A DNA stretch of 59,300 nt from an uncultured Oscillospiraceae bacterium (GTDB taxonomy: Bacteria > Bacillota > Clostridia > Oscillospirales > Oscillospiraceae). The notes under the pieces are model-generated. The model was not told the origin of the DNA. It was given only the letters and a program-made list of their open reading frames with translations, and ran no database searches. The stretch is from positions 1-59,300 of the forward strand of contig CALXDB010000001.1 in NCBI GenBank assembly GCA_944386955.1, in the 5' to 3' direction. Made by a program: the position numbers and the translations under genes. Of this stretch, positions 11,528-25,309 are shown one piece after another; position 1 is the stretch's first letter; the number at the start of each line of letters is the position of its first letter.

Positions 11528-11561
11528 AAAAAAAGGACCTCCGGCAGCATGCCGGAGGTCC
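11528..11561 (-). terminator. rho-independent terminator at the end of the phage-like cluster
   Basis: The minus strand reads GGACCTCCGGC atgct GCCGGAGGTCC followed by TTTTTTT, 16 nt after the endolysin stop. Confidence 0.7.
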
Positions 11562-11576
11562 TCTGGGGCGTTTCCC

Positions 11577-12233
11577 TTACTGTTTGCTCAGGCGGTACAG
11601 GATCTCCGCCAGCTGTTCTCTGGTGAGGAACATCTTGTACTGCATGTTCCCCGCCTCGTCTCCTTTCAAAAGGCCCGCCATCTCCGCCCAGGCCCGGGCC
11701 TGGGCGCTCCAGCTGCCTGGGGCCTGCTGCCGCAGCTCCTCCAGATAGCCGTCCATCAGTTTGTTGAAGGTCTCCTGGGTCATGGTCTCCTCCTCCTCGT
11801 ACAAGGGCATCTCGCCGGGCAGGCTGCCCGTTAAGATCATGGCGCTGGTCCACACGCCTCGCGCGTCCCACTGGATATGGGGCAGATCGGGAAAGCTCTT
11901 CCAGTCCCCGCCCCAGCTGAATCCCATCTCTTTGGCCAGGGCGGCGGCGGACTGGAAAAAGTCCGGGTCGCTGTACTCCTGTCCTTTCACGTTTTTGCAA
12001 AAATCAAAGGCCAGCCCCACCTTATCGGAGTGGAAAGTGGGTGTGGGGCTGTTGGTGACGATGGTACCTGGGCGGCTGCGGCCCTGCTCATAGAGCCAGG
12101 CCTGGTAAGCGCTGTCCCGCACGGTGCTGGTCACCAGCACCTGCAGTCCCGCAGCGCTGCACCGCTTCAGCCAGATCTTACAGTTGGCCGCCACATCCGG
12201 CCGCAGAAGGTCCACATCTCTGCTGTTCAGCAT
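11577..12233 (-). CDS. peptidase M15 (VanY / L-alanyl-D-glutamate peptidase-type) endolysin with a C-terminal SLH-like wall-binding segment
   Basis: Zn-ligand pattern FHSDKVGLAFDF ... GGDWKSFPDLPHIQWD (H-x-x-G-x-A-x-D ... D-x-x-H). The C-terminus SWSAQARAWAEMAGLLKGDEAGNMQYKMFLTREQLAEILYRL resembles a single SLH-type repeat. Confidence 0.8.
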   Translation of the reverse strand: MLNSRDVDLLRPDVAANCKIWLKRCSAAGLQVLVTSTVRDSAYQAWLYEQGRSRPGTIVTNSPTPTFHSDKVGLAFDFCKNVKGQEYSDPDFFQSAAALAKEMGFSWGGDWKSFPDLPHIQWDARGVWTSAMILTGSLPGEMPLYEEEETMTQETFNKLMDGYLEELRQQAPGSWSAQARAWAEMAGLLKGDEAGNMQYKMFLTREQLAEILYRLSKQ

Positions 12234-12296
12234 AGGGACTCCCCTCTCTCTTTGGTCTCGGGCGGCGTTGCCGCCCTTCTATTCTATGCGCCGGCG

Positions 12297-12596
12297 TTAC
12301 AGCTGCAGCCCCAGCTGCACCAGCACAAAGCCCACCAGCGCCCCCACCGCCATCAGCAGCACCTTGTCCACCACTGTCTCCCAGCGCTGGCCGGGCTTCT
12401 GCTCCAGCACATCTACCTTTTTCGTCAAATTTTCCAGTTCCTCCCGCAGATGGCGCTGTTCGCTGACCAGCACCTCCACAGAGGTGGCGATGTGGGTCAG
12501 CATCTCCTGTCCCCGCTCCAGCTGCTCGATGCGCCGGGTGTTGGACCGAGCCCGGGAGTCGGTCTCCGTCAGCTTCACCGCCGTTGTCTCTTCCAT
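12297..12596 (-). CDS. XhlA-like (hemolysin XhlA family) lysis-associated membrane protein
   Basis: 99 aa. Coiled-coil N-terminal region (RIEQLERGQEML...LREELENLTKKVDVLEQ) plus a single C-terminal TM helix (VLLMAVGALVGFVLVQLGLQL). It sits directly upstream of the endolysin. Confidence 0.6.
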   Translation of the reverse strand: MEETTAVKLTETDSRARSNTRRIEQLERGQEMLTHIATSVEVLVSEQRHLREELENLTKKVDVLEQKPGQRWETVVDKVLLMAVGALVGFVLVQLGLQL

Positions 12597-12602
12597 ATGC
12601 CG

Positions 12603-13169
12603 TCACACCGCCAATTCCAAGGTATGCCAGGTATACCCGGCCGCGTGGATGTCCGCCCAGGTCCACTCCCGCGCCTCCAGCTCCGCCCAGGTGAGGTAGC
12701 GGAAATAGAACTCCGTCTCCAGATGGCAGGGAATGATATCCAGGATCACCTGCCGGATCTGGTCGAACTCCTCCGGGATCCCCGCCACGTTGGGAAAGAT
12801 TACCCGGATGTGGCCCCACTGGTCCGTCTCCTGGGCCTCCGCCTTGATGCCGCAGCCCTGAATGGCCCGGTTCACCGCCTCCAGAGTGAAGCTGTCGCCG
12901 CTGATCTGCAGCAGGGCGTGAATGGCCTCCCGCCGGAGAGGGACGCTCACCTGGACGGGCCGGTGGGCGAAGAGGCTCTCCCGGCGGGAAAGTCCCTCTC
13001 CCTCCGCCGTGGCGGTGACGCATTCCCGCTGGGCGTAGTCCGCTGCATCGGCGGCGCCGTCCAGTCCTGCCCCCATAGCCTCCAGCTCGCTGGCACTGAG
13101 ACTGCCCGCACGGAGGTCATAGATTCCCAGTGGCCGCAGCAGCTCCTGCAAATACGCCGCGTATCCCAT
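12603..13169 (-). CDS. baseplate wedge protein, DUF2313 / XkdU / Mu gp48-like
   Basis: 188 aa immediately after the baseplate J-like gene. The N-terminus YLQELLRPLGIYDL fits the DUF2313 pattern as I remember it. Confidence 0.6.
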   Translation of the reverse strand: MGYAAYLQELLRPLGIYDLRAGSLSASELEAMGAGLDGAADAADYAQRECVTATAEGEGLSRRESLFAHRPVQVSVPLRREAIHALLQISGDSFTLEAVNRAIQGCGIKAEAQETDQWGHIRVIFPNVAGIPEEFDQIRQVILDIIPCHLETEFYFRYLTWAELEAREWTWADIHAAGYTWHTLELAV

Positions 13170-13170
13170 C

Positions 13171-14232
13171 TCAGCCTCCCATCTCCGTTATGGCCACCGC
13201 TCCCAAGGCAGGCAGCCGGGAGGGCAGTGCTGCCACATCCTCGGCTGGAGCGGTGAAGCGGTAGTTTGCCACGCTGTCCAGGGAGTAGAGCAGGTTTCCC
13301 AGTTCCGCCAGAGTCACCGGCTCCCCCAAAAGCTGACCGTCAAAAAAGCCGGCCAGGGCGTCCTCGGCGTCGGCTTTGGCCTGGGAAAAACTGTATCCCG
13401 CAGCCGGTTCCACCGCCGCCGTCACCGCCACAGGCAGCAGCTCCGGCGCCAGCACCTGCAGGTCCACTGCAATCTCCCTGCTTTTTTGCAGGGTCTCCTC
13501 CACCGCCTGGCGCAGCGTCTCCTCCGGTGCACCGGCAGCGGAGGAGATGTACACGTCCACCGTGCCGATGCCCCGTGGACGTCCCACAGCCCTGGCCGCC
13601 GCCACTCCTTCAAAGCGCATGGCCTCCTGCTCGTAGTAGGCGGCATTGGCCCCGTTAGGCAGGCGGCGGTAGCTGTCCAGGATTCTCGTCCGCAGGGCCT
13701 CGTCGTCCTCCCGGTCCGCCCCGCCGGTAAAGGGTTTGGGATTGGTGCACCGGGCCACCCCCGCCGGGGCCACCGCCATCAGCACCACCCGATCAGCCCC
13801 CACATTGCCGCTCTCCCCGCTCTCCGCCGCCTGGGCGGGCACCTCCGTCCACAGCTCCCCCGCCGGGATAGCCCCGTCCTCTAAAGTCTCATACCGCACC
13901 CCGGCGGCGGTCATGCACACCGTGCCCGCCGGGATATTGAGGCTCTGGCTCACCGCCTGGTCCACGGAAAAGCGGAGGACACCCTCCGCGGCGGTGGCGG
14001 CCACTCGTGTGATGTTTCGGGTCTCCCCGTGGTAATCCAGGAATTCCCCCTGGGCCGTCTGGGGGAAGCTCTGGTCCAGCACCCACTTTGCCTGGGCGTA
14101 CAGGGCCTGGACCTGGGCGGCAGCGGCATAGAGCCGGGCCGCCAGATCGCAGGCGGCGTGGGGCCGGTAGCCGGACTGCTGGGCAAAGGTGTCCAGCATC
14201 TCCTGATAGATCTCCTCCAAGGTCTTTTGCAT
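13171..14232 (-). CDS. baseplate J-like protein (XkdT / gp47 family)
   Basis: 353 aa. The position, size and sequence character (EIYQEMLDTFAQQSGYRPHAACDLAARLYAAAAQVQALYAQAKWVLDQSFPQTA) are typical of the Baseplate_J family. Confidence 0.75.
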   Translation of the reverse strand: MQKTLEEIYQEMLDTFAQQSGYRPHAACDLAARLYAAAAQVQALYAQAKWVLDQSFPQTAQGEFLDYHGETRNITRVAATAAEGVLRFSVDQAVSQSLNIPAGTVCMTAAGVRYETLEDGAIPAGELWTEVPAQAAESGESGNVGADRVVLMAVAPAGVARCTNPKPFTGGADREDDEALRTRILDSYRRLPNGANAAYYEQEAMRFEGVAAARAVGRPRGIGTVDVYISSAAGAPEETLRQAVEETLQKSREIAVDLQVLAPELLPVAVTAAVEPAAGYSFSQAKADAEDALAGFFDGQLLGEPVTLAELGNLLYSLDSVANYRFTAPAEDVAALPSRLPALGAVAITEMGG

Positions 14233-14244
14233 CGTCTCGCTCCC

Positions 14245-14598
14245 TTACATGGATATGGTCACTTCCGCCGTCACGGCGGTATCGCCCTGGCTGAGGCAGA
14301 CCCGAAGGGACAGCATCCCCGCCGCTCCCTGCTCCAGTTCCACCGATTCCACGGTTACATCCTCCTCCCCCAGCGCCTCGGCCACATATTGCCGGGCGGC
14401 GGAGAGCCGCCCCTCGGGGGGTTCCCGGCCCAGCAGATACAGCCGGCTGCCCAGTTCCGGCAGCACCGGCAGGCCGCCCCGCCGGGCGGTCAGGCGGAAG
14501 AGGACCCGCTGCAGCAGAGCCTCCTCCCCCTCCAGACGGACCACGCCGCCCCGGCCGTCCGCCACATAGTCTCCCTCGCGCAGCAGCAGTTCCATCAT
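14245..14598 (-). CDS. small baseplate protein, XkdS / DUF2634 (gp25/GPW-like position)
   Basis: 117 aa directly upstream of baseplate J. The motif LLQRVLFRLTARRGGLPVLPELGSRLY resembles the gp25-like fold family. Confidence 0.55.
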   Translation of the reverse strand: MMELLLREGDYVADGRGGVVRLEGEEALLQRVLFRLTARRGGLPVLPELGSRLYLLGREPPEGRLSAARQYVAEALGEEDVTVESVELEQGAAGMLSLRVCLSQGDTAVTAEVTISM

Positions 14599-14611
14599 CT
14601 TCTCCTTCCCG

Positions 14612-14995
14612 TCAGATCAGGGGCGTCAGCTGCACCCCGTTGAGAAACAGCGTTCCTGTGATCTCCACCCGGCCCCGCAGCTGGATGGTCCCATCCAGCC
14701 GCAGCCGGATGGAACTGTCCCCCGCCGTGAAAACCAGCTCTCCCGGCTCCAGGTCCTGCTCCTCCCGGCAGGCGGCAGCCACCACATAGCGCTCCTCGCC
14801 GCCGGTCCCCCCTTTTAAAACCAGCACCTGGTCTCCGGCCCTGGGCCGCCAGACCAGGCCGGCGGGGGCGTAGACGGGCAGGTCCCGCTCCTCGCCGCAG
14901 GTCTCCACCGCCGCCGGCGCCCCGCCGATGGTGGCAGTGCCGGCCTCGGCGGCGGAGGAGCCGCCCCGGGCGCGCAATCGCTCAGATATCCACAT
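14612..14995 (-). CDS. small baseplate hub/spike-like protein (XkdR / gpV-like position)
   Basis: 127 aa. VWRPRAGDQVLVLKGG resembles the OB-fold spike motif. Assignment is mainly by position. Confidence 0.45.
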   Translation of the reverse strand: MWISERLRARGGSSAAEAGTATIGGAPAAVETCGEERDLPVYAPAGLVWRPRAGDQVLVLKGGTGGEERYVVAAACREEQDLEPGELVFTAGDSSIRLRLDGTIQLRGRVEITGTLFLNGVQLTPLI

Positions 14996-15938
14996 GGTCT
15001 CTCGCCTCCAGTATCAGCGTGGTGGTCTCGCCGGCGCTGCCGCCCCGGCTCTCCGCCTCCACCACATCATAATCCCCCGCCAGTCCCAGGGGCTCGTAGG
15101 TCACCCATGCCACATCCCCAGGCTGGGCAGCAAATGCCCCTACCACCGTCATCTCCACCTGGTACATGCCCTCCATGCTCCGCCGGATCTGATACTCGCC
15201 GGTGTACCGCATGGCTGCCAGTGTGCTGATGCCGGGGGTGTAGAGCACCTGCCGCCGGCTGCCGCCCAGGTCCAGAAAGGCCCGGTTCACCACCCGCTGG
15301 GTAGTCTTCCTGGTCTTGTCCTTCACCAGCATCTCGGAGATCACCCCGTATCGGGTGAAGTGGACGGCACAATCCGTCACTGCCGCCGTACGGTCGATGC
15401 TCCGGTGGACGCCGCTGCCCGCCATGGGGCAGACCTGGAGGGTACCGTCGGCGGTAAACCAGGGCAGAAATCCCCCCACATAGCGGACAAAGCCGCTGAG
15501 GGCCTGCCACTGGCTGCTACCGCTGTCCACCCGATAAGCCCCAGCGCAGCGTAGGGCCGTACAATCCCCCAGCGAAATCCCCCAAGGGACGGCGTGATTG
15601 CGGAGAATCTCCTCCACCGTGGCCCCTTGGTACTCCGCCGCTTCCGCCTCGTTGTCCAGCAGCAGCGCCGCCAGTCCCCGGCCGGAGAAAGTCAGCAGGC
15701 GTCCCTGCTCTGACACCTCCGCCCGATACTCATCCACCACACCCTGCAAAACCAAATCGTCTCCCTGATAGGCGGTAAAACGGCAGACTTGAGGCAGCAC
15801 ATCCATCAGCTGTCCGTCAAAGAGGCACACCGCCTCCAGATCGTCGCAGGGGACGCTCCCGGTGCGGCGCAGCCGCCACTCCTTCACCGTGGGAGCCAGA
15901 TATACCTGACCGTCGCAGGCAGTGAGCTGAATGGTCAT
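14982..15938 (-). CDS. XkdQ / late-control gene D-like baseplate hub protein
   Basis: The track ORF was trimmed to ATG 15938 (MTIQLTACDG), which overlaps the LysM gene stop as ATGA. About 318 aa, in the position after the LysM protein as in PBSX-type tails. Confidence 0.6.
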   Translation of the reverse strand: MTIQLTACDGQVYLAPTVKEWRLRRTGSVPCDDLEAVCLFDGQLMDVLPQVCRFTAYQGDDLVLQGVVDEYRAEVSEQGRLLTFSGRGLAALLLDNEAEAAEYQGATVEEILRNHAVPWGISLGDCTALRCAGAYRVDSGSSQWQALSGFVRYVGGFLPWFTADGTLQVCPMAGSGVHRSIDRTAAVTDCAVHFTRYGVISEMLVKDKTRKTTQRVVNRAFLDLGGSRRQVLYTPGISTLAAMRYTGEYQIRRSMEGMYQVEMTVVGAFAAQPGDVAWVTYEPLGLAGDYDVVEAESRGGSAGETTTLILEARDHVDI

Positions 15939-16492
15939 CCCGGGACCACCACCTTCTGCCCCACCTGAATGCGATTGGGGTTGGAGATGGCGGGATTGGC
16001 CGCCAGGATCGCCTCCAGGGTCACGCCGTACCGCCCCGCGATAGCCCAGAGAGTATCCCCCTGAACCACCGTATAAACAGTGCTCGCCTGTTCCGATGCC
16101 GTCTCCGCCGCCGACAGCAGAATCAGCCCCGTGCGGCAGCTGGAGGAGTCCTCCCGGAAAGCGAAACGGTAGGCCACATAGTCCGGTAGGGGCTTTTGTG
16201 TCAGGGCCAGCTCCGTAAAATAGGCGCTGGAGGGCTGCCACACCGGGTGGATCAGCAGTCCCGCCCCCCCGCCGTAGAAGAGGGAGGCCAGCTCCTTGAA
16301 CCGGTCGTAGGCTCCCTCTCCGGCGAAGACCCCCTCTCCCTCCAGCACTCGGGCCATCAGCCCCAGATCCTGGAGGCAGTAGCGTCCGAAGGGCACCTTG
16401 TGTCCCGCCACCAGCCGCTGAAAGGAGATGGAGTAGGTATGGGGGTTGTGGGGCCAGACAAAGGTCTTATACCGCATGGGCGTCAGTTCCAT
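15935..16492 (-). CDS. LysM-domain tail protein (XkdP-like)
   Basis: C-terminal LysM domain YTVVQGDTLWAIAGRYGVTLEAILAANPAISNPNRIQVGQKVVVP. RBS is GAGAGGAGG. Confidence 0.8.
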   Translation of the reverse strand: MELTPMRYKTFVWPHNPHTYSISFQRLVAGHKVPFGRYCLQDLGLMARVLEGEGVFAGEGAYDRFKELASLFYGGGAGLLIHPVWQPSSAYFTELALTQKPLPDYVAYRFAFREDSSSCRTGLILLSAAETASEQASTVYTVVQGDTLWAIAGRYGVTLEAILAANPAISNPNRIQVGQKVVVPG

Positions 16493-16507
16493 CCGTCAAA
16501 CCTCCTC

Positions 16508-16978
16508 TCACAGCAGCGGAAAAGCGCCGTCGTACCGCCGGGCGTCCCGCTCCCACTGGGCGGACAGCTCCCGGGGGCCCACGGCCGTCTCCGTCTCTGC
16601 CGTTCCTGTGGTGCGCACCGTCTCCGCGGTCCCCTGGACCAACCGCTCCAGAGGCACCTCCCGCTCCTGCCGGACACTCTTCCCCGTGTCGATCTCCCGC
16701 GCCTCCCGGACCGCCTCCCCGGGGAGGACCGGCTCCGTCAGCTCCACAGTCCGCCCCTTCGCCTCCGGCTCCCCGGCGGCAATCGTACGGCTCTCCGGCA
16801 GCTCCGGTTCCCCAGCCCGCACCGCCTCAAACCGCGCCATATCGAAGGAGGATGCCTCGCCTCCCTCGGTCCGCTCCTGGACCGCCCTCTGGTCCGCCGC
16901 CTCCAGCAGAGGGGACAAGCGCCCCAGGGCCTCCAGAGGCAGGCGGAAGGTGATCTCCACCAGTTCTCTCGGGTCCAT
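16508..16978 (-). CDS. acidic 156-aa protein occupying the tail-chaperone/tape-measure slot
   Basis: ATG 16978 overlaps the tube gene stop (TGATG). The protein is E/A/R/T-rich (…TAETVRTTGTAETETAVGPRELSAQWERDARRYDGAFPLL). It is the only ORF between the tube gene and the LysM gene. Confidence 0.5.
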   Translation of the reverse strand: MDPRELVEITFRLPLEALGRLSPLLEAADQRAVQERTEGGEASSFDMARFEAVRAGEPELPESRTIAAGEPEAKGRTVELTEPVLPGEAVREAREIDTGKSVRQEREVPLERLVQGTAETVRTTGTAETETAVGPRELSAQWERDARRYDGAFPLL

Positions 16979-17370
16979 CAGGCCACCACTTCCATCCGCT
17001 TTTTGGCCACCACAGACACCTTCTCCGCCACCATAGTCCCCAGCTTGCCCTCCTCGGCGATGGCGTTCCAGTTGCAGCCGCTGTAGATCACCCGGCGGTC
17101 CGGCTTGCAGATCACCAGGGAGAAATCCTCCAGGGTGTAGAAGTCGATGCCGTCGGCAATGGCATCGTCGGTAGCGTAGAGTCGAGTCAGCTCCAGCACA
17201 TACTGGTTCTGGGAGGCGATGGTCCCCACTGGCTCCGCCTCGCCGAAGGCCTCCACCGGGGTGCTGGTGCGGGTGGTTTTGGCGGTGTAGCTCTGGACCA
17301 CCGCCACCTTTTTCCCTTCCAGCTCCAAATAGATGTCGCTGCTGGTGGGAAATCCTGTCACACTTGCCAT
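16978..17370 (-). CDS. phage tail tube protein (XkdM-like)
   Basis: 130 aa immediately downstream of the sheath gene. Beta-rich sequence (IYLELEGKKVAVVQSYTAKTTRTSTPVEAFG...) consistent with XkdM-type tubes. Confidence 0.65.
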   Translation of the reverse strand: MASVTGFPTSSDIYLELEGKKVAVVQSYTAKTTRTSTPVEAFGEAEPVGTIASQNQYVLELTRLYATDDAIADGIDFYTLEDFSLVICKPDRRVIYSGCNWNAIAEEGKLGTMVAEKVSVVAKKRMEVVA

Positions 17371-17382
17371 AGGTTTCCTCCT

Positions 17383-18441: not shown

Positions 18442-18940
18442 AATCAGGCGCTCCTTTCAATTTGAAGTCCAAAAACAGCCCCGGCTCCTCTTGAGCCTGG
18501 GCCACGAAGGCGGCGGTGCACTGGAGGAGGGCGGCCTGTCGAATGTGCTCCGTCTCCCGGTCCCAGCCCGCCGCTTCCCAGATCATTTCCCCGGGGCGGA
18601 GCCCCTCGGCCAGTCCCGCCAGGAGGGCGTCGTGAGCCTCCTCCAAAACGGCCGTGCAGCCCGCCGCCCCCTCCGTTCCGGGGCCGTAGGCCGTCAGCTC
18701 CACACTGACCTCCAGCCGCCGGCCGTATACCTCCCGCCAGGTGGCAGTGTCCGCCTCATAGGCCAGCCCCAGATAGTCGCAGAGGGCGGCGCTGGCGCTG
18801 TCGGCCCGCCGCAGGCCCACCACGATCACCGGTCGGTCATACTGTCCCGCCCACTGTGGCTCCCAGGCGGCAGCCGCGGGAATGTCCGCCGCCGCGAGGC
18901 ACCGCAGCACCTCCCGGCGCACCTGTTCCAGTCCGCTCAT
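18422..18940 (-). CDS. head-tail joining / tail-completion-like protein (hypothetical)
   Basis: The track ORF was trimmed to ATG 18940 (MSGLEQVRRE), which overlaps the preceding stop as ATGA. 172 aa, located between the connector genes and the sheath. Confidence 0.45.
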   Translation of the reverse strand: MSGLEQVRREVLRCLAAADIPAAAAWEPQWAGQYDRPVIVVGLRRADSASAALCDYLGLAYEADTATWREVYGRRLEVSVELTAYGPGTEGAAGCTAVLEEAHDALLAGLAEGLRPGEMIWEAAGWDRETEHIRQAALLQCTAAFVAQAQEEPGLFLDFKLKGAPDFEQYRT

Positions 18941-19260
18941 TCCGCCGCCTCCCTCTCCGTCCGGAGAAGGCCGTGCCAGTAGAGCACCGCCTCCCCCAGG
19001 TACACCGGCGTGGCGGACAGCACCCGAAAACGCTCCCCGCCGCACTCGACTACATCGTGGCGGAGCAGGGTGGTGCCGCCGGGGCCGATGTAGACCCAAC
19101 GCCGCTGGTCCACCGCTCCCAGAGGCGTAGCAGCCACCGGGTCCTCTCCGCCGCTGGTCTGGGGCTGCACCGAGGCCTGAAGGACGATCTGTTCCTCTCC
19201 CCGCCACAGCGTCACCCGCTGGCCATAGGCGGCAAAGAACCGCTCCAGCCGTCCCCTCAT
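18937..19260 (-). CDS. head-tail adaptor / head-closure-like protein (hypothetical)
   Basis: Trimmed to ATG 19260 (MRGRLERFF), which overlaps the preceding stop as ATGA. 107 aa. Assignment is by position. Confidence 0.45.
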   Translation of the reverse strand: MRGRLERFFAAYGQRVTLWRGEEQIVLQASVQPQTSGGEDPVAATPLGAVDQRRWVYIGPGGTTLLRHDVVECGGERFRVLSATPVYLGEAVLYWHGLLRTEREAAE

Positions 19261-19607
19261 CCCGGCACCCCCACGAAGGCAAAGCCATCGCCGCCGCAGT
19301 AGGGGGCCATGATCTTCCAGGCCTGGCGGCGCATCCGCGACGCGGTGTCGCTCCAATTCCCGCCGCCTACGGACACATCTCCCACCCGGACCGCACCGGT
19401 CTCATTCCGGCCGCCCGTCAGATTGGCGGCAGCCAGCCAGGCGGCGGCGCAGAGGAACAGGTCCGCGCAGTCCTCGGCCGTCACGCCGTCCCGCAGGGCG
19501 GAGCGGAGCTCCCGCTCCGCTCCGGCGCACAGCCGCCACAGCACGCCCTCCTCCGCCTCTGTAGGCGACGCCAGGGCCTTTGCAATGGTAAAGATCTCCT
19601 CGGTCAT
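19257..19607 (-). CDS. gp6-like head-tail connector protein
   Basis: 116 aa directly after the MCP gene. The helical N-terminus (TIAKALASPTEAEEGVLWRLCAGAERELRSAL) is as in gp6-like DNA-packaging/connector proteins. Confidence 0.5.
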   Translation of the reverse strand: MTEEIFTIAKALASPTEAEEGVLWRLCAGAERELRSALRDGVTAEDCADLFLCAAAWLAAANLTGGRNETGAVRVGDVSVGGGNWSDTASRMRRQAWKIMAPYCGGDGFAFVGVPG

Positions 19608-19646
19608 CTTCCCAGCCTCCTTTTGTTGTGATGATGGTCCCTCCCG

Positions 19647-20678
19647 TCAGATCTCCAGCACCCGGGAGGCGTCCTGGAAAAGCTTGGCGAAGCCGGAGAT
19701 GCAGGTGATGGCCGCCCGCTCCAGCTGGCGGTCAATGAGCTTGTCGTACTCCACCTGCACCTGGCCGCCGGTGACCATCTCCAGCGCGTAGTTCTTGTCG
19801 AGACCGATGAGCTTGCCCTTGGGCATGGCCCCGGTCCGCAGCAGGCGTGCGCCCAGGGGGGTGGTCAGGGCGCCGGTGCCCTGGAAATTGAGGCCGGTGA
19901 GAGGATTTTGGAACTCCTCCATCTTGAGAAGCTGCAGCATCACGTCGCCGCCCACCAGAAGGGTATTCATGGTGTAGGGATCAAACTCCCCCCAGAAGTC
20001 CAGCAGGGCGCCGTAATCCAGGGTCCCCTTGGTGCCGGAGATGGGTTCCGTGCCCACGGTATAGCTCTTGGCGGCGTTGTCGTTGCCGTCGCCGTCCATT
20101 ACCACAGAGATGGCGTCCTCCAGCTGCATCCGGGCGATGTGTCCGCCGATCTGGCGGAGGGTCACAGAGAAGAGGTCCAGCCGCTGGAAGCGGATGGCCT
20201 CATAGGAGGCCACCAGCATCCGCCCCCGCTTGTGGAGCTTCACCAGGTTCTCCTGGGTCCGCACCTGGGTCTGGGGCAGCTGACCGCCCTCCTCCACCCG
20301 AGCCAGACGCTTGTCCTCCTCGGAGGGCACCGAAGCAATGGAGCGGTAGTCCCTGCCGTCAAAGGTGGTAACCGCCGCAGTGATGTGGGGCAGGACGTTC
20401 TCCTCCTCCATGCCCTGGCGCACCACCCGGGCCACAAACTCCGGGAACAGCACGGCGGACTCGGTGGTGTGGAAGAACTTCTCCACCATGTCGCTGCCGC
20501 TGCCCTTCACATGGATGTCAAAGCGCTTGAGCTGGCGCTGGAAGGCGTCCAGTCCCTCCATGGGGGTACCCCGATAGGCCTCGCTGGGGTCACAGGCCTC
20601 CAGCACCTGGGAGAAGGTCTTGCCGGCCTCGCCGTACATCCCCTTCTCCAGCTTCACGTCATTCAGAAGATATGCCAT
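19647..20678 (-). CDS. phage major capsid protein
   Basis: 343 aa from ATG 20678 (MAYLLNDVKLEKG), RBS AAAGGAGGAG. Follows the protease/scaffold and decoration-like genes. Sequence character is typical of HK97-fold capsid proteins. Confidence 0.75.
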   Translation of the reverse strand: MAYLLNDVKLEKGMYGEAGKTFSQVLEACDPSEAYRGTPMEGLDAFQRQLKRFDIHVKGSGSDMVEKFFHTTESAVLFPEFVARVVRQGMEEENVLPHITAAVTTFDGRDYRSIASVPSEEDKRLARVEEGGQLPQTQVRTQENLVKLHKRGRMLVASYEAIRFQRLDLFSVTLRQIGGHIARMQLEDAISVVMDGDGNDNAAKSYTVGTEPISGTKGTLDYGALLDFWGEFDPYTMNTLLVGGDVMLQLLKMEEFQNPLTGLNFQGTGALTTPLGARLLRTGAMPKGKLIGLDKNYALEMVTGGQVQVEYDKLIDRQLERAAITCISGFAKLFQDASRVLEI

Positions 20679-20698
20679 GTTCGTCTCCTCCTTTTTTC

Positions 20699-21034
20699 TC
20701 ACAGCAGCACCGTGACGGTCTGGGCGGTCTCGTCAGTCTCCACCACCCAGCGCTTCACGCCGCTCTCGTCGCTCTTCACGCCGCCGCTGCCGTTGGCGCT
20801 GAGGCCGGTAAAGCCCACGGCAGGCGCGCCCTCGCTGTAGCCCACCGTCACAAAGCCGCCCACCTGCACGCTGACCGCACCGTCTCTCCCGGACACTGCC
20901 ACACCGCAGAAGGCCTCTCCCGCGCCGCAGGCCGCCACCGTCTGAGCCCCGCTTACCTTCACCACGCTGCCCTCGGGGATGTCCTCCCCCAGGAAGGTGG
21001 CGCACCACTGCCCAATGCCGTTAAAAGATACCAT
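20699..21034 (-). CDS. small Gly/Val-rich head protein (DUF2190 / decoration-like)
   Basis: 111 aa between the protease/scaffold and MCP genes. The beta-rich G/V/A composition resembles DUF2190-type head proteins. Confidence 0.4.
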   Translation of the reverse strand: MVSFNGIGQWCATFLGEDIPEGSVVKVSGAQTVAACGAGEAFCGVAVSGRDGAVSVQVGGFVTVGYSEGAPAVGFTGLSANGSGGVKSDESGVKRWVVETDETAQTVTVLL

Positions 21035-21055
21035 GTTCCGCTCCTCCTTTGTTTG

Positions 21056-21949
21056 TTACACCAAAAATGCCTCGCCGCTGTCGCTTCCATGGCCCCAGCC
21101 CAACTGGGGACCGGGCCATCTCCGGCGCTCCAGCCGCTTTTTCAGCACCCGGGTCAGCTCCAGCAGCTCCTCTTCCTCCATGCGCTCCGCGGCTCTGGCG
21201 AAAATGGCGCAGTCCAGATCCTCCTCCGCCAGTCCCGCCAGGCGCACCAGTTCCTGCCGCAGGGCCGCCAGATAGCTCCGACCGGCGGCGGCCTCCTTTT
21301 CCAGCTGAAGCCGCTCCCCCTGGTCAAAACCCCGGTACACCAAGGTCTTCTTCAAAACCCCTGCCTCCCGCTGGGCGGGCACCGCCACAAAGGACCACTC
21401 GTAGGCGTCGGTGGGGTCCTCCAGAATGGCGGTGCACAGCTTGCCGTCATACTGCCGGCCGGGTACATGTCCACATTGGGAAATCTCCCCGCCGCATACG
21501 GAGCACACCCGGCGGGCCACCGCACAGCCCACGCTGACCTCCTTTTTGATCCCGCCCTCGATCTCCTCAATGAGCGCCTGGTTCTTTTCGGAGCGGAGCA
21601 TATAGGCCCAGCCCTTCAGATACCGGCAGGGCTCCCCCGCCATGGTCATCCGCCCCGGCTCCTCGGCCACCTCCGTCCGGTAGATCCGGGCAGTCTGCCC
21701 GGCGGCAGACCACTGGTGGTCAAAAATGCCGCTCTTGCCTACAAACAGCTCTCCCAGCCTCTGGAGGCAGTCGAGAGAAAACCGCTCAAAATCCCGGTCC
21801 ACCTCGTTGTCGCACAGCCGCAGGGCGAAGGTGTACACCTGCTCCGCCGTCAGCTCCCCCTTGGCAAAGCGGTTGATCTCCGCCAGATCCGCCTCGGTGA
21901 CGCCGCCGTACTCCACACCGCCTGTTTTTTTCACATCCGTCACTGTCAC
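21056..21949 (-). CDS. prohead protease-like domain fused to a coiled-coil scaffold-like C-terminus
   Basis: The GTG at 21949 overlaps the portal stop (GTGA) and has a GGAAGGG RBS. The N-terminal roughly 200 aa are globular (FALRLCDNEVDRDFERFS...GIFDHQW...). A Cys4 knuckle is present (CAVARRVCSVCGGEISQCGH). The C-terminus is helical and E/L/R-rich. Confidence 0.55.
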   Translation of the reverse strand: MTVTDVKKTGGVEYGGVTEADLAEINRFAKGELTAEQVYTFALRLCDNEVDRDFERFSLDCLQRLGELFVGKSGIFDHQWSAAGQTARIYRTEVAEEPGRMTMAGEPCRYLKGWAYMLRSEKNQALIEEIEGGIKKEVSVGCAVARRVCSVCGGEISQCGHVPGRQYDGKLCTAILEDPTDAYEWSFVAVPAQREAGVLKKTLVYRGFDQGERLQLEKEAAAGRSYLAALRQELVRLAGLAEEDLDCAIFARAAERMEEEELLELTRVLKKRLERRRWPGPQLGWGHGSDSGEAFLV

Positions 21950-23139
21950 AGCTTCCCTTCCATCTGAAGATTTTCCAATTCCAGCTTCCTCGCCTGCTGT
22001 CGGTACCACTCCGCCTTGGCCTCATCCAGCTCATCCTGGAGGTTGATGTCGTCCCACAGCACCTCAAAGGGCTCATAGATCCCATTGAGGCGCATCCACA
22101 TCCGGCAGATTTTCTCCACCACAGGGGTAAGCCCCCGGCGAATGGCTGTCAGCTCGGAGGTAAGGATGTCCGCCTGCTGGGTGCTCATCCGCTCCGTGGA
22201 GGACCAGCTGAGCCCCAGCATAAAAGGCGGAATGCCGGTCTTGGCGATGAGCTGCTCCAGGATCTGCCGCACCGGCACCTCGCTGTCGAGAATCTGGTTG
22301 TCCGCGCCGATGACCCGGATGTCCACATCTCCGATGGCCACAAAATCCCGGACGCTGCCAGTTTTGGAGCTCTGCATGGCCCGGCTCCACTCCCTGGCGA
22401 TCTGCCGGCTGCGCTCCTGAGCCGTGGCCGGGTCCATCTCTCCGCTCTGAGGCTTGCACACCACGGCAAACCGGACGTTGCCCATCCGCTCCCAGTTGGC
22501 TCCCATAGCGGTGAAGATCTTCCCCAGAAGCTCCGTCAAAAAGGGCATGGACCGAAGCATGGACACCCCATAGGGGCTGTGGGTCTCCGGATTGTAGGGG
22601 GTAAAGAGGAGCAGATCCTGCCGGGGCAGCGGCCGCGGCATGCCATCGCTGCCGTAGCCCCAGAGGGTAAAATCCAGAGGAGAATCCCCCTCCCGGATCT
22701 GCACATCCTCCACCCTTCCGCAGACCAGAGCGGCGATGTCCCGGCCCTCCGGGTCCACCACCATCTCCCCCACCGCCTGACCGAAGGTGAGCATGGAGTC
22801 GAGATACATGTCCAAAAAGGCATTGATCCCCACCTGCCCCCGACCGGCGGGCACGGTTTTGAGGAAGCGGTCCATCTGCCGCTGAACACTCTGGGTCGCA
22901 CAGTCCACCGTCACGCCCCCGGCCAGCCGGATGATCTTGCAGAGGGCGGCGTCCACCGCCGGGACCCCCTGGCGGATGGCCTGATAGAGCCGGGCCTCCC
23001 CGCCTCCCAGGGGGACCATATCCATGAGGCCTCCCCAGGGGAGGGCGTCCCGGCTGCGCAGCTGGGTGGAGGCCGCCGCCACCCCCTCCTCCTTTCGTTT
23101 GAAAAACGCCATACTGTTTCCATCCTTTCCTGTACTCAC
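21946..23139 (-). CDS. phage portal protein
   Basis: About 390 aa directly downstream of TerL. Start is either GTG 23139 (a GTGA overlap with the TerL stop) or ATG 23112. Size and position are typical of a portal. Confidence 0.75.
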   Translation of the reverse strand: MSTGKDGNSMAFFKRKEEGVAAASTQLRSRDALPWGGLMDMVPLGGGEARLYQAIRQGVPAVDAALCKIIRLAGGVTVDCATQSVQRQMDRFLKTVPAGRGQVGINAFLDMYLDSMLTFGQAVGEMVVDPEGRDIAALVCGRVEDVQIREGDSPLDFTLWGYGSDGMPRPLPRQDLLLFTPYNPETHSPYGVSMLRSMPFLTELLGKIFTAMGANWERMGNVRFAVVCKPQSGEMDPATAQERSRQIAREWSRAMQSSKTGSVRDFVAIGDVDIRVIGADNQILDSEVPVRQILEQLIAKTGIPPFMLGLSWSSTERMSTQQADILTSELTAIRRGLTPVVEKICRMWMRLNGIYEPFEVLWDDINLQDELDEAKAEWYRQQARKLELENLQMEGKL

Positions 23140-24389
23140 CGCTCTACCGACACGGCGGCAAAGCCATCCCCCCGGAAACTCCCCGCCACTGTAGACGCAA
23201 AATACCGCATGTCGTCCATGGCGTGGTCATTTTGTTTCAGGGGGACCTCCCTGCCCTGACCGCCGGCCTCCCAGCAGTAGAGGGCCATTTCCCGCAGGAG
23301 ATCCCGGCAGGGCCGGCAGATCACCAGCCTGCCGCTTTTGAGAAGCCCCGCTGTCAGGCGGATGCCCGCCAGCACGTCGTTGGCCGCCTTCACCACGGGA
23401 AAGCCCTCCCGGCGCAGGGCGGTGATAAAGCTGGCGGCGGAGGGGTCCACCACCACCCGTCTCAGCTGCCGCCCCGCCGCCAGCCGCCGCAGGTCCGCCA
23501 CATACTCCTGGTCCGTCTTTTGTACACCGGTGTCCCGGGAAGCGTAGTAGTACTCGTCCACCCGATACCACACCCCATCCCGCAGCCCCCATAAACCAAA
23601 CGAGCATGGGTTGGCGGTGCCGTAATCGATGGAGACGCAGTACTGCTCCAGCTCCCCCTCCGGCACCGGCTGTACCATTTCCTCCGGGGAAAAGAAATCG
23701 TAGATGAGCCCCTCGGCCGCCGACCACTCCCCCAATACGAACCGGCGGTAGAACGCCCCGGAGTAGCGGTTTTCATACCGCCGCCGCATAGCGGGAGAGA
23801 GGCTGGGATTGTCGGCCATGGTGAAATGAAGGTAGAGGGCGTTTTTCTCCTCCGCGCGGCAGATCCACTCCCGGTAAAACCAGTGCTGGGGCCCCTCGGG
23901 GTTGCAGTTGAACCACAGCCTGCTGCCCTCGACGCTGCACCGTGCCAGGGCCTGCTCCACGAAGCTGCGGGGCATGAGGGCCACCTCGTCCATCAGCACC
24001 CCGGCGAAGGTAGCGCCCTGGATCAGTGCCGCGCTGCCCTCGTCCTTGCCGCCGATGAGATGAAAGAGGTTTTCATGTCCCTCTCCCCGGACCACCAGCT
24101 GATTGGCGCTGCGCCGCTCGGTGACGCTGAGCCCCAGCTCCCCCAGCAGGGGCGTCAGCTCATTCACCAGATTGCGCCGGAGGGAGACGATGGTCTTTCC
24201 GCACAAGGCGAACTGCCGCTGATGAAAGGCGGCGGTGGCCCAACAGAAAAAGCTGAGCCCCATGGCCAGGGTCTTGCCGCTTCTGACGGCCCCGTCACAA
24301 ATGATGGCCTCTCGGCGGCTGTCCTCCGACCCTGGGCACCACCACAGCAGCACCCTCTTCTGCTTTTCGGAAAAGCTGTGGATTCTCAC
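23136..24389 (-). CDS. phage terminase large subunit (PBSX/XtmB-type)
   Basis: Walker A-like [10 protein letters not shown]. ATPase motifs (LMDEVALMP) and a C-terminal nuclease-like region (SIDYGTANP ... DHAMDDMRY). Confidence 0.9.
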
Positions 24390-24670
24390 GCGTTCTCCCC
24401 TCCGCCAAGCTGCTGAAGGAAATCCATCAGTCCGCCGCCCCCCTGTTCCCCCTCCAGGGCCAGCAGCAGCTCCAGGGCCTTGGTGCGGTCAAAGAACTTC
24501 AGCTCCATAGCGCCGTTGGCATGGCACTTGAATTCCGCCACCCCCTCCAGCCTCAGCTTCCGGATATCCACGCCCTCCTCCATGGCCAGGCGGATGGCGT
24601 CGTTGGGCCGGTAGAAGGCCAGCCGCTCCAGAAGTCCGATCAGATCCTCCCGGCTTTTTCTCCTGCTCAT
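24386..24670 (-). CDS. truncated terminase small-subunit-like protein (C-terminal part only)
   Basis: 94 aa from ATG 24670 (AAAGGA RBS). [30 protein letters not shown] matches the conserved C-terminal block of Firmicute-phage TerS proteins (…iKl.DKlkALElLgk), recalled from memory. No N-terminal HTH segment is present. The stop overlaps the TerL start as ATGA. Confidence 0.55.
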
Positions 24671-24709
24671 GTACTCATCCTTTCCAACCCCGGGGGCTGC
24701 GGGGAAAAA

Positions 24710-24728
24710 ATTGCACGAAAACGTGCAA
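24710..24728. promoter_or_regulatory. perfect 7-4-7 palindrome TTGCACG-AAAA-CGTGCAA upstream of the phage-like cluster
   Basis: Read directly. It lies 40-58 nt upstream of the TerS-like ATG, inside the divergent ridA/cluster intergenic region. Confidence 0.3.
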
Positions 24729-24767
24729 CCAAAAATTTTCTCCGGCGGCCTGCCGCCCCTCTCTCCA

Positions 24768-24795
24768 TTGACATTTCGAAGCAATCTGGTACAAT
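24768..24795 (+). promoter_or_regulatory. near-consensus sigma-70 promoter for ridA
   Basis: TTGACA (24768-24773), a 16-nt spacer, then TGgTACAAT (extended -10, 24787-24795), 35 nt upstream of the ridA ATG. Confidence 0.55.
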
Positions 24796-24829
24796 GAAGC
24801 CATCACCAACAGAAACGGAGGAGATTCCC

Positions 24830-25207
24830 ATGAAGAAGATCATCGCCACCGACAAGGCGCCCGCCGCCATCGGTCCTTATAGCCAGGGTGTCAGCGCCGG
24901 CAGCCTGACCATCACCAGCGGTCAGCTGCCCATCGACCCCGCCACCGGGGCCTTTGCCGAGGGCGGCATTGCCGGTCAGACCCGCCAGTCTCTGGAGAAC
25001 GTGAAGGCCGTCCTGGCCGCCGCGGGCTACGAGATGAGCGACGTCATCAAGACCACCGTGTTCCTCAGCGACATGAACAACTTTGCCGCCATGAACGAGG
25101 TGTACGCCACCTACTTTGCCGGTGAGGCACCCGCCCGCAGCGCCGTGGAGGTAGCCCGTCTGCCCAAGGACGCGCTGGTGGAGATCGAGGCCATCGCCGT
25201 CAAGTAA
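24830..25207 (+). CDS. ridA: RidA family reactive-intermediate (enamine/imine) deaminase
   Basis: [20 protein letters not shown]...[18 protein letters not shown]...[23 protein letters not shown] is the canonical YjgF/RidA sequence. A GGAGGAG RBS is present. Confidence 0.9.
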
Positions 25208-25221
25208 CCCCAAAAGCAGAG

Positions 25222-25259: not shown

Positions 25260-25309
25260 CATCCGTCAAAAAAGGAGCACCGAAGCAGCTCTGCTCCGGT
25301 GCTCCTCGT

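Follow-up and report, generated by a model that had tools for sequence, protein, structure and literature searches.

Gene content and boundaries of the locus

We analysed a 59,300-nucleotide stretch of DNA (the window) from an uncultured Oscillospiraceae bacterium. Positions 11577-24670 of its minus strand carry 20 same-strand genes, from TerS through an endolysin, within ~13 kb (Table 1). The 20 ORFs that a sequence-only reading of this DNA had listed were confirmed. Each was reproduced exactly by gene calls from 10 or more independent metagenome contigs that have the same flanks, and all of them scored as coding (codon model trained on host-type long ORFs). None is disrupted, as had been noted. 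Overlapping start-stop junctions were also observed, but not the six ATGA/GTGA overlaps claimed; there are five 4-nt ATGA/GTGA overlaps and one 1-nt TGATG overlap, besides two longer overlaps.

Upstream, the host gene ridA starts 159 nt from the TerS ATG, in line with the ~160 nt given earlier; downstream, cstA starts at 11196, ~380 nt from the cluster. The terminator attributed to the cluster was located as well. At the locus, a tRNA search found none and an Rfam search gave zero matches. In agreement with the earlier reading, the window locus has no integrase, repressor or replication gene and no flanking direct or att repeats were found around the cluster; an xre/xpf-type control module is also absent from the locus. 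GC3 is 0.84 both inside and outside the cluster, which bears out a codon composition as GC-rich as that of the flanks, and overall GC is a little higher inside (0.658 versus 0.619 outside). These data show a single compact operon in which all 20 genes are intact, with a terminator at its end and host genes directly at both sides.

Table 1. Features of the locus, from the upstream to the downstream end
Feature	Position	Strand	Evidence or remark
GC hairpin (GGCGGCAGGCCGCC), then A/T tract GAAAATTTTT	24731..24757	-	Directly upstream of the palindrome
Perfect 18-bp palindrome, TTGCACG-N4-CGTGCAA	24711..24728	-	41 nt before TerS ATG
TerS-like protein, 94 aa	24386..24670	-	Aligns with C-terminal ~95 residues of full-length form
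Large terminase (TerL), 417 aa	23136..24389	-	PBSX family; TIGR01547 at 1.7e-51
Portal, 388 aa	21946..23112	-	phrog_30703 at 1e-159; weak PF04860
Head-morphogenesis protein, protease/scaffold slot, 295-297 aa	21056..21949	-	phrog_16951 (function unknown) at 9e-114
Small virion structural protein, decoration/scaffold slot, 111 aa	20699..21034	-	phrog_4588 at 2e-23
Major capsid protein, 343 aa	19647..20678	-	PF25209 at 8.7e-15; phrog_3922 at 1.9e-109
Connector 1, head-tail joining slot, 116 aa	19257..19607	-	Position; no profile match; kept in 74 loci
Connector 2, 107 aa	18937..19260	-	Position; no profile match; kept in 75 loci
Connector 3, tail-completion slot, 172 aa	18422..18940	-	phrog_25177 at 4.9e-33; kept in 78 loci
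Contractile tail sheath, 352 aa	17383..18441	-	PF04984, PF17482; phrog_279 at 4e-45
Tail tube, 130 aa	16978..17370	-	Position; phrog_27038 at 4e-60
Slot protein (whole chaperone-plus-tape-measure slot), 156 aa	16508..16978	-	Position; no family match
LysM baseplate/hub-associated protein, 185 aa	15935..16492	-	XkdP / P2 gpX position; PF01476 at 1.9e-17
Baseplate hub, 318 aa	14982..15938	-	phrog_177 at 1.6e-33; weak PF22255
Small spike-slot protein, 127 aa	14612..14995	-	phrog_25991 at 9e-27
gpW/gp25-like baseplate wedge, 116-117 aa	14245..14598	-	phrog_43, phrog_975 at ~1e-6; weak PF07409
Baseplate J protein, 353 aa	13171..14232	-	PF04865 at 4.5e-50; phrog_6 at 3e-67
gpI / Mu gp48-like wedge, 188 aa	12603..13169	-	PF10076 at 2e-7 (below curated cut-off); phrog_521 at 7.7e-16
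XhlA-like membrane protein (lysis), 99 aa	12297..12596	-	phrog_937 at 2.7e-15
Endolysin, M15 peptidase domain, 218 aa	11577..12233	-	PF13539 at 1.8e-9; phrog_6523 at 1.4e-28
Intrinsic terminator	11532..11564	-	15-bp stem (9 GC pairs), then T-run; closes operon

Among the gene labels proposed earlier, TerL, portal, major capsid, sheath, LysM, hub, Baseplate_J, XhlA and M15 endolysin are backed by profiles, and gp48-like weakly so. The labels protease/scaffold, decoration, three connectors, tube, XkdR and XkdS reflect gene position, these proteins matching at most function-unknown PHROGs or weak profiles. Both Walker motifs, A (GAVRSGKT) and B (VLMDE), are present in TerL, which also matches PF03237 (Terminase_6N) and the PDB large terminase 5OE8/5OEA (1.7e-132). 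The window TerS, which has zero Pfam or PHROG matches of its own, can be aligned with the longer TerS proteins (150-180 aa) of Oscillibacter-type loci, one of which matches PF03592 Terminase_2 (2.4e-9, residues 10-127); it is devoid of ~55 N-terminal residues, the N-terminal part of Terminase_2. The truncation noted earlier is not local damage, the short form being common to several genera, while Oscillibacter-type loci retain the full-length one. The latter was counted against the explanation preferred below. For the protease/scaffold-slot protein, Pfam, NCBIfam and PDB searches were all without match; its AF2 model (pLDDT 63) has confident long C-terminal helices (210-276), and Foldseek on this model returned nothing significant.

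Among the tail proteins, the tube is the most conserved of the cluster family (dN/dS 0.05-0.07). The slot protein combines a conserved N-terminus and an FD..RFE motif with a middle part of low complexity; its C-terminus ends in ...WERDARRYDGAFPLL, a motif common to the slot proteins of all lineages. Its length is ~150-400 aa across the family; nine of the 13 homologues found have exactly 156 aa. It was taken as the tail-length ruler by position only, and its fast evolution (dN/dS 0.41-0.43 against two close relatives) and predicted disorder over most of its length (AF2 pLDDT 58) count against the preferred explanation. Apart from it, the spike-slot protein is the most variable structural protein (68-76% identity to close relatives, dN/dS 0.31-0.47). 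The LysM domain is C-terminal, and the N-terminus of the same protein weakly matches PF07157 and phrog_184. The gpI/gp48-like gene is the final structural gene, followed in all loci by lysis or host genes. The XhlA-like translation shows a C-terminal hydrophobic segment, and the wall-binding-like C-terminal domain of the endolysin is also present in the CHAP-type endolysins of Oscillibacter loci.

The palindrome upstream of TerS has its sole perfect match in the window at this site. With at most two mismatches, 45 of 60 loci, representing several genera, have it at the same position before TerS, and it is a candidate operator of the operon. Hairpins with A/T tracts comparable to the one next to it were observed at many loci; we infer that the window hairpin and tract likely act as an insulating terminator and/or UP-like element.

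Distribution, inheritance and selection

We found 4,524 tube homologues, and relatives of the tube are encoded by 381 species genomes; the loci of the best 80 of these 381 genomes were compared in detail. All 80 are from Oscillospiraceae, and all have 17 core genes of constant order and size spanning 12-13 kb (TerL-to-gpI span, 11.8-13.1 kb). The minimal tape-measure slot and the missing fibre, both pointed out in the sequence-only reading, are family traits: in each of the best 80 loci tube and LysM genes are only 0.49-1.33 kb apart, and the last baseplate gene has no fibre gene after it. None of the 80 has an adjacent integrase, and searches of the ~80 loci revealed no primase/replication gene, regulator or att repeat either. 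The 'proviruses' of IMG/VR are the same ~13-kb block.

All 16 core genes are of normal length in 41 of the 59 full loci. At one locus, L084, the genes from portal to connector 3 are lost, which was counted against the preferred explanation. A related head module (L012) is present without tail genes on a 46.7-kb contig. Adjacent lysis genes are missing at many loci, and none has a fibre; therefore, essential parts may lie elsewhere or be missing, which was likewise counted against the preferred explanation. The flanking genes vary from genus to genus, so some past relocation is possible, a further point against that explanation. There is partial synteny on both sides: one side shares kdpDE-like genes, the other cstA, recG and the window gene 4932-6350; the kdpDE-like two-component system abuts TerS in Oscillibacter-type loci and is 11 kb from it in the window.

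Compared with two close relatives (loci L014 and L015), dN/dS was 0.03-0.47 for all 20 genes, and dS of the cluster was similar to that of the flanks. TerL gave 0.025-0.046 in this comparison and 0.03-0.10 when eight further species pairs were included. In those eight pairs the median dN/dS was 0.05-0.29, with 0.11 for flank genes. All genes of the cluster are under purifying selection, like the flanking host genes. Moreover, tail-protein identity tracks RecG identity (Pearson r = 0.86), showing that divergence of the cluster follows that of the neighbouring host gene recG.

Proposed function and alternative explanations

The block is quite probably a DNA-packaging particle locus of the GTA/PBSX kind, derived from a phage, domesticated and under host regulation; it would be ancient and vertically inherited in Oscillospiraceae, which retain it to serve their own needs. 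Conservation, purifying selection, co-divergence with RecG and the absence of integrase and att sites support the earlier view of a host-maintained locus, presumably particle-producing, rather than a decaying prophage. The block is not the private remnant of one genome: it is kept under selection in hundreds of Oscillospiraceae species of the gut. GTA-like packaging of Oscillospiraceae DNA (Onthomonas, Pelethomonas) was described in 2026, with the gene cluster unnamed (PMC12946183; bioRxiv 10.64898/2026.07.08.737213). The block is the best candidate for the "gene transfer agent" of this family, and two Pelethomonas genomes (L025 and L028) carry it.

We propose that a host factor acts at the palindrome, whose 5-N6-5 geometry is typical of CRP/FNR-type dimers and which lies ~41 bp before the likely transcription start, and switches the operon on in a subpopulation. 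The portal, slot-4, small structural and capsid proteins would assemble proheads. The N-terminal part of Terminase_2 is the usual DNA-recognition part; the PBSX-family TerL, together with a TerS devoid of it, would package DNA by the headful mechanism and with little sequence preference, so that most of the cargo would be chromosomal. Sheath and tube would polymerise on a Mu/PBSX-like baseplate around the very short slot protein, which should give an unusually short, fibreless contractile tail, and XhlA and the endolysin would release the particles. A hallmark of GTAs is that the head cannot hold the whole gene cluster; an element of 13 kb might in principle be accommodated by its own capsid, which was counted against the preferred explanation.

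A PBSX-type particle that punctures related cells or serves programmed lysis, its packaged DNA being an undelivered by-product, is a less likely but serious alternative. It would account for the PBSX-family TerL and the PBSX-like tail/baseplate gene order with LysM protein and XhlA, and PBSX particles themselves contain 13 kb of random host DNA that they do not transfer (PMC12946183). However, an irrelevant cargo is hard to reconcile with packaging genes that are the most strongly constrained of the locus, no locus has a fibre or receptor-binding gene for killing specificity, and the xre/xpf-type control module is absent.

We consider a mobile phage satellite or minimal prophage (e.g. capsid-forming and tail-carrying), for which a helper phage or the host would supply excision, replication and fibres, to be improbable. 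The absence of integrase, primase/replication gene, regulator and att repeat at ~80 loci, divergence in step with recG, dS matching the flanks, partial synteny and host-like GC3 argue against this, in spite of the ~13-kb size, the self-contained head and packaging genes resembling those of capsid-forming satellites, the tailless head module of L012 and the flanks varying between genera. An 'unknown MGE resembling a capsid-forming satellite' in a Pelethomonas MAG (bioRxiv 10.64898/2026.07.08.737213) also favours it, though this is possibly another element. Still more improbable is that the block merely persists as the inactive remnant of a prophage. The lack of fibre, long tape measure, lysogeny module and, in the window, holin would suit a remnant, as would the large internal deletion in L084, but the ORFs are intact in the window and in most of the 59 full-length loci, dN/dS is far under 1 for every gene in ten species pairs, and the candidate operator is conserved. 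The 'missing' parts are absent at every locus, which indicates design rather than decay.

Comparison with known systems

The sequence-only reading had stated that the locus matches no described GTA or tailocin architecture, and we found none in the open-access literature. The tail module has no close phage relative: the sheath and J proteins are at most ~32% identical to real-phage proteins, the nearest being those of the Mu-like phages SuMu and 3927AP2 and of BalMu-1 (26-32%; the same range for the nearest true phage sheaths). The locus resembles Mu-like/P2-like myoviruses in its hub (gp44-like second domain), gpW/gp46-like, Baseplate_J/gp47 and gp48-like proteins, but is devoid of fibre genes, long tape measure, transposase and lysogeny genes. 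Capsid-forming phage-inducible chromosomal islands (cf-PICIs) are also small and encode a terminase, portal, capsid and connectors of their own. They have an integrase as well as regulatory and replication genes, and no tail genes; our locus is the opposite in each of these respects.

PBSX of Bacillus subtilis, a defective prophage or phage-like bacteriocin, is likewise encoded on a Firmicute chromosome by clustered genes for head, contractile tail and lysis. Both have a TIGR01547 large terminase and the order sheath, tube, slot, LysM, hub, small spike-slot, gpW-like, Baseplate_J, gp48-like, XhlA and endolysin. However, the locus is ~13 kb against ~28 kb for PBSX, lacks the xre/xpf control genes, XkdV-type fibre, XkdW/X and XepA, and has a 156-aa slot protein in place of the much longer XkdO tape measure (1,332 aa). 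Most of its proteins are not detectably similar to Xkd proteins (the closest 'XkdT' has 28% identity), and NCBIfam Xkd models gave zero matches to them.

RcGTA-type elements of Alphaproteobacteria are also structural-only clusters (~13-15 kb) with vertical inheritance, purifying selection and host regulation, the last being a supposition for our locus, and in both accessory genes may sit elsewhere. The RcGTA TerS has no DNA-recognition part (PMC12946183), nor has the window TerS. The proteins are unrelated, and our locus, as judged from its genes, differs in its contractile rather than siphovirus-like tail, its Gram-positive host and, in the window, the attached lysis genes. FpGTA of Faecalibacterium is podovirus-like and has two operons (10.5 and 5.5 kb), the second with baseplate, fibre and RBP genes (PMC12946183), whereas our locus has sheath, tube and Mu-like baseplate genes in one operon and is fibreless. 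By layout the two are alike in a compact operon that starts with a TerS without an evident DNA-binding domain and continues with TerL, portal, scaffold and capsid, and both belong to gut Clostridia and are near-ubiquitous within a genus (Faecalibacterium for FpGTA).

Gene content and edges of the cluster

The cluster consists of 20 minus-strand ORFs, which we delimited by start-codon and ribosome-binding context, in a window of ~63% GC. The sequence-only reading had described them as a structural block in late-operon order, and this description was confirmed by profile searches and by gene calls: the same 20 products are called on at least 10 independent metagenome contigs that carry an identical tube protein. 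The neighbours on these contigs are also identical (hisIE, a PHP-family gene and ridA on one side; cstA, spoIIID and lytR on the other). Therefore, the junctions are not an assembly artefact, a possibility that had been raised at the outset. In the window, ridA and the his operon flank one side of the cluster, and cstA and spoIIID the other.

Features of the cluster and its surroundings
Feature	Position	Strand	Support or remark
Cluster, TerS to M15 endolysin	11577-24670	minus	20 ORFs
Large terminase (TerL)		minus	Terminase_6N; NCBIfam 'PBSX family' TIGR01547, 1.7e-51, 175.9 bits against a cut-off of 105
Portal		minus	phrog_30703, 1e-159
Major capsid protein (MCP)		minus	PF25209; phrog_3922
Sheath		minus	PF04984, PF17482
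Slot protein (156 aa)	16508-16978	minus	between tube and LysM genes
LysM protein		minus	profile search
Hub		minus	phrog_177
gpW-like protein		minus	profile search
Baseplate_J		minus	4.5e-50
Mu gp48-like protein		minus	PF10076, under its cut-off
XhlA		minus	phrog_937
XhlA-endolysin spacer	12233-12297		63 nt, GC hairpin, no holin gene
M15 endolysin		minus	profile search
Terminator at operon end	11532-11564		strong
Palindrome	24728-24711		41 nt ahead of the TerS ATG
cstA	9745-11196		between endolysin and spoIIID
Host gene with homologues beside related loci	4932-6350
kdpD/E-like kinase and response regulator	35850-37632		11 kb from TerS

The genes are tightly packed: neighbours overlap by 4 nt at five junctions, by 1 nt at one and by longer stretches at two. 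The operon ends in a terminator of its own, as had been proposed. The last structural gene (gpI-like) is separated from XhlA by 6 nt with nothing in between, and TerS from ridA by a spacer of 159 nt. GC3 is 0.84 both within the cluster and outside, in agreement with the host-like codon composition noted earlier. Direct repeats that might mark att sites were sought at both edges; only short chance-level repeats turned up, and none of them pairs the two flanks, which also bears out the earlier reading. An Rfam scan of the whole window gave zero matches, a tRNA scan of the window found none, and the 59-kb window outside the cluster holds ordinary host genes and no further phage gene. Neither an xre repressor nor an xpf sigma-like activator adjoins the cluster, as the spacer leads directly to ridA, and there is no regulator gene within it. 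At Oscillibacter-type loci, one or two small membrane proteins occupy the place of the holin-less spacer between XhlA and the endolysin.

Profile searches supported the main head, tail and lysis roles that had been assigned from the sequence, while the connectors, the tube and XkdR/S remain named by position. The same applies to the 'protease/scaffold' and 'decoration' labels; the profile matches of all these proteins are weak or to families of unknown function. The tube, hub, spike-slot, gpW-like and gpI-like proteins gave no NCBIfam matches, the NCBIfam search returned no Xkd-family names, and membership of the XkdQ-U, XkdK or XkdM families is clear by profile for Baseplate_J only. TerL matches the solved large terminase 5OE8/5OEA at 1.7e-132, and its translation shows Walker A and Walker B motifs. 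Searching PDB sequences with the sheath, the capsid protein and the slot-4 protein (the 295-aa 'protease/scaffold' ORF) returned nothing useful. The AF2 model of the slot-4 protein has a pLDDT of 63 and found no PDB match at E < 0.5 in Foldseek; its name thus remains a label by position.

TerS occurs in two size classes. The Oscillibacter/Dysosmobacter type has 147-199 aa, and one such protein matches Pfam Terminase_2 across residues 10-127. The window, Pelethomonas and Flavonifractor types have 88-123 aa and align with the C-terminal two thirds only. The truncation of the window TerS suspected earlier is therefore real and common to these three types; the protein lacks the N-terminal Terminase_2 segment, presumably the DNA-recognition part of these proteins.

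Distribution, inheritance and neighbourhood

Clustered at 90%, the homologues of the tube protein (130 aa) number 4,524, and when one genome of each species was scanned, relatives turned up in 381. All of the best 80 loci belong to Oscillospiraceae, including Oscillibacter, Dysosmobacter, Flavonifractor, Intestinimonas, Pelethomonas (two genomes, loci L025 and L028) and many unnamed MAGs. The complete genome of a cultured type strain, Oscillibacter valericigenes Sjm18-20, carries the cluster.

We compared the loci by tblastn with the window proteins, followed by our own gene calling and clustering. At every locus examined (~80), 17 core genes keep their order and near-constant sizes: TerS, TerL, portal, slot-4, small structural protein, MCP, three connectors, sheath and tube, then, after the slot, LysM protein, hub, spike-slot protein, gpW-like, J and gpI-like. 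The span from TerL to gpI is 11.8-13.1 kb. In IMG/VR we found 146 matches, and on every contig of sufficient length the 'provirus' amounts to the same ~13-kb block alone. Fifty-nine loci cover the core completely. In 41 of these, each of the 16 scored genes is present and its length is within 0.8-1.3 times the median; the rest mostly have one short gene absent, which could reflect the gene caller or MAG quality. The sole clear case of decay among the 59 is L084, an Oscillibacter sp. MAG locus (~7800-10400) with a real internal deletion that removed portal through connector 3 and fused TerL to a truncated sheath.

An integrase or replication gene adjoins the cluster at none of the ~80 related loci. 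Downstream of the gpI-like gene, some loci have a lysis cassette of XhlA, one or two small membrane proteins and endolysin, and others run straight into host genes such as recG, cstA, nrdD, uvrD or thyA/folA. No fibre-like gene was found among the larger ORFs downstream of gpI at the loci examined, so that the missing fibre recorded for the window is a property shared across related loci.

Comparison with the two closest relatives (L014, L015) gave dN/dS values of 0.03-0.47 for the whole set of 20 genes, and of 0.02-0.21, with a similar range of dS, for the flanking host genes. In other sub-lineages, eight more species pairs gave a median dN/dS per gene of 0.05-0.29 for the 17 core genes; the median for 49 flank genes is 0.11. 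Every gene is thus below 1, the outcome that had been set as a check. The most strongly constrained genes are TerL, MCP and tube, which argues that packaging and particle integrity matter. Tail-protein identity follows RecG identity at the 16 loci with an adjoining recG (Pearson 0.86, Spearman 0.77; the pairs are non-independent). Selection, intact genes and co-divergence with RecG together support the earlier view of a host-maintained locus rather than a decaying prophage. Between the window and L014, the head genes have diverged less at synonymous sites (dS 0.22-0.36) than the baseplate and lysis genes (0.46-0.88), possibly due to recombination within the operon or to differences in codon constraint.

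On the question of a common cstA/ridA locus, cstA recurs in relatives, ridA marks the window group, and the flank genes vary by genus with some overlap. Recurrent neighbours on the cstA side are cstA itself, recG and the homologue of a further window gene (table). On the other side, a kdpD/E-like two-component system directly abuts TerS in 15 Oscillibacter/Dysosmobacter loci. Its window counterpart, whose response regulator is 61-70% identical, lies farther away, and the pair may be an ancestral neighbour or a regulator. This pattern fits an old chromosomal position later eroded by rearrangement. In L014 and L015, cstA is absent from its place beside the endolysin and the ridA side borders homologues of genes that the window has at 57.7-58.9 kb, indicating rearrangements even among close species.

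The tape-measure slot and the upstream palindrome

The minimal tape-measure slot noticed in the window (471 nt) proved to be family-wide, with tube and LysM lying 0.49-1.33 kb apart in every genome locus and 0.64-1.43 kb apart in the loci from IMG/VR. We observed two arrangements. The slot is either filled by a single protein (156-257 aa in the window type, ~195-403 aa in the Pelethomonas type) or by a protein of ~100-140 aa, sometimes with a ~85-aa zinc-ribbon piece, followed by one of ~150-230 aa. All forms have in common the C-terminal motif (F/W)(E/Q)RD(A/G)RRYD(G/N)GFxL(Y/L/F) and an N(P/A)xFD..RFE motif; split forms have the latter at the C-terminus of the upstream ORF, fused forms in the interior. 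The longest slot protein (403 aa, locus L045) contains ~8 tandem copies of the 13-aa unit PLADPPAAxGE(V/I)(S/F), which suggests that slot length grows through repeat expansion.

The window slot protein has 13 detectable homologues only, nine of them exactly 156 aa long, and its dN/dS (0.41-0.43) indicates weaker yet purifying selection. Its AF2 model (pLDDT 58) has three short helices and a disordered middle, and neither favours nor counters a role as ruler. A helical tape measure sets ~0.15 nm of tail per residue. By position and analogy, the 156-aa protein would correspond to a tail of ~25 nm. The small slot, the absent fibre and the short TerS appear to be design features. If the locus is active, the series from 156 to 403 aa is a natural test of how contractile tail length is set.

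Upstream of TerS lies a perfect 18-bp palindrome, TTGCACGTTTTCGTGCAA, with the consensus TTGCACG-N4-CGTGCAA; it is the sole perfect copy in the window. With up to two mismatches, the motif stands at the equivalent site in 45 of 60 loci, in several genera and behind any upstream gene, and elsewhere there are ~57 scattered two-mismatch matches in 1.39 Mb. Some lineages have symmetric variants, e.g. TGTACG-N4-CGTACA. Ahead of the motif there is an A/T tract and, in many cases, a terminator-like hairpin. In the Pelethomonas group, a TATGGG element follows the motif after ~18 nt, and the ribosome-binding site comes next. At locus L090, tandem GGAG(C/A)GCGGAG(G/A)GG repeats lie directly upstream of the A/T tract and palindrome.

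The 5-N6-5 geometry matches that of CRP/FNR-type sites, and from its sequence we read the palindrome as a candidate operator that overlaps the -35 region and would be bound by a dimeric regulator. The alternative, an RNA hairpin or attenuator, appears less likely, because conservation across genera extends to the stem sequence but not to the loop, and about one third of the loci have no T-run; for these reasons a hairpin plus T-run was set aside as the main reading. The leader folded as RNA was nothing special (z = -1.06). The only sigma-70-like promoter in the TerS-ridA spacer is oriented toward ridA. If the locus is active, the conserved candidate operator offers a handle on regulation of the cluster.

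Interpretation and comparison with known systems

We consider it likely that the cluster is a domesticated, host-controlled operon whose products would form DNA-filled heads on short, fibreless contractile tails, the particles presumably leaving the cell via lysis. A dead remnant is disfavoured, as the genes are intact and under selection. We likewise disfavour a mobile satellite, because integrase, replication genes and att sites are absent at ~80 loci and the cluster co-diverges with host genes. A related element on a 46.7-kb contig of 47.5% GC (L012, MT835508.1), which has a homologous head module from TerS to MCP plus three small ORFs at 21600-27700 followed by opposite-strand genes other than tail genes, may itself be a head-only element or satellite.

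The Oscillospiraceae, most of them uncultured, are butyrate producers that abound in the gut. In three studies from 2026, their chromosomal DNA was strongly over-represented in virus-like particles (VLPs), and the authors suspected a GTA, with its genes unnamed (PMC12946183; bioRxiv 10.64898/2026.07.08.737213; TrIdent preprint). In one of them, GTA-like packaging in Onthomonas has a read-length peak at ~5.9 kb and the packaged fragment for 'GT' is ~35 kb, neither of which is linkable to the window cluster; a gene cluster is named only for the podovirus-like FpGTA of Faecalibacterium (PMC12946183). Onthomonas sp900545815 could be mapped to none of the cluster loci retrieved. The mouse VLPs are strongly enriched in Oscillospiraceae DNA, especially that of Pelethomonas, and both preprints report no convincing GTA cluster, only 'an unknown MGE resembling a capsid-forming satellite' (bioRxiv 10.64898/2026.07.08.737213; TrIdent preprint). 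These reports and the presence of the cluster in Pelethomonas are leads, and the cluster, found there and in the cultured strain Sjm18-20, is a concrete and testable candidate for the packaging genes.

More tentatively, and with some doubt, the operon could be the missing basis of Oscillospiraceae packaging in human and mouse gut VLPs: a new particle whose DNA-filled head would sit on the shortest contractile tail known, its length set by a ruler of 150-400 aa with RDARRYDGGF at the end, without fibres and under a family-wide host regulator at TTGCACG-N4-CGTGCAA. If so, a dominant gut clade would possess an ancient gene-exchange organelle at the level of the family. [quoted passage not shown]

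Virus catalogues already hold the locus. IMG/VR lists it as ~13-kb 'proviruses' (loci L094-L173) and GenBank as 'Bacteriophage sp.' (MT835769, MT837832); PHROGs 16951, 27038, 25177 and 25991, of unknown function, seem built largely from it. A host locus is thus counted as virus, which distorts prophage and virome statistics for Oscillospiraceae. Among GenBank 'phage' records, MT835769 comes closest. This faecal scaffold of 18.6 kb is made up of the cluster and 8 kb of host genes; it probably came from a DNase-treated VLP preparation, and we infer its link to PMC8361208.

The sheath and J proteins of the nearest real phages, Mu-like phages and BalMu-1 (whose protein is annotated 'XkdT'), are only 26-32% identical. 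The head module has somewhat closer relatives on lower-GC faecal contigs, where TerL, portal and MCP are 46-57% identical. On one contig of 43% GC (L013, MT835952.1, 885-4062), a homologous head module and LysM protein leave no room for a sheath; connector 3 is followed by a 119-aa ORF, a 73-aa ORF with ERESRRYSHGF and the LysM protein. The 119-aa ORF was considered as a homologous 'sheath-less' tube and set aside, as hhalign showed no similarity to the tube profile.

The open-access literature yielded no prior description of the cluster as a GTA, tailocin or PBSX-like element in Oscillospiraceae, only VLP studies, and the earlier impression of an architecture unlike described GTAs and tailocins agrees with this. 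Unlike an intact temperate myovirus, the cluster has no lysogeny, replication or fibre module, no att sites and no genome-size tape measure. R-type tailocins and extracellular contractile injection systems are headless, whereas the cluster has strongly constrained TerS, TerL, portal and MCP. It is the opposite of a cf-PICI, which has an integrase and replication module and no tail genes: it lacks the former and has sheath, tube and baseplate. With PBSX it shares the PBSX-family large terminase; however, PBSX has the long tape measure XkdO, the tail fibre XkdV and adjoining xre and xpf, and the cluster has neither of the first two, family-wide, nor the latter pair. With GTAs it shares a phage-derived chromosomal structural cluster free of integration, replication and lysogeny genes, and host upkeep through vertical inheritance and purifying selection. 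The random packaging of host DNA that marks GTAs is addressed only indirectly, by the missing N-terminal segment of the window TerS and by the VLP reports on Oscillospiraceae DNA. The comparison supports a variant of the GTA/PBSX-like domesticated phage particle, with an unusual minimal architecture and a wide distribution.
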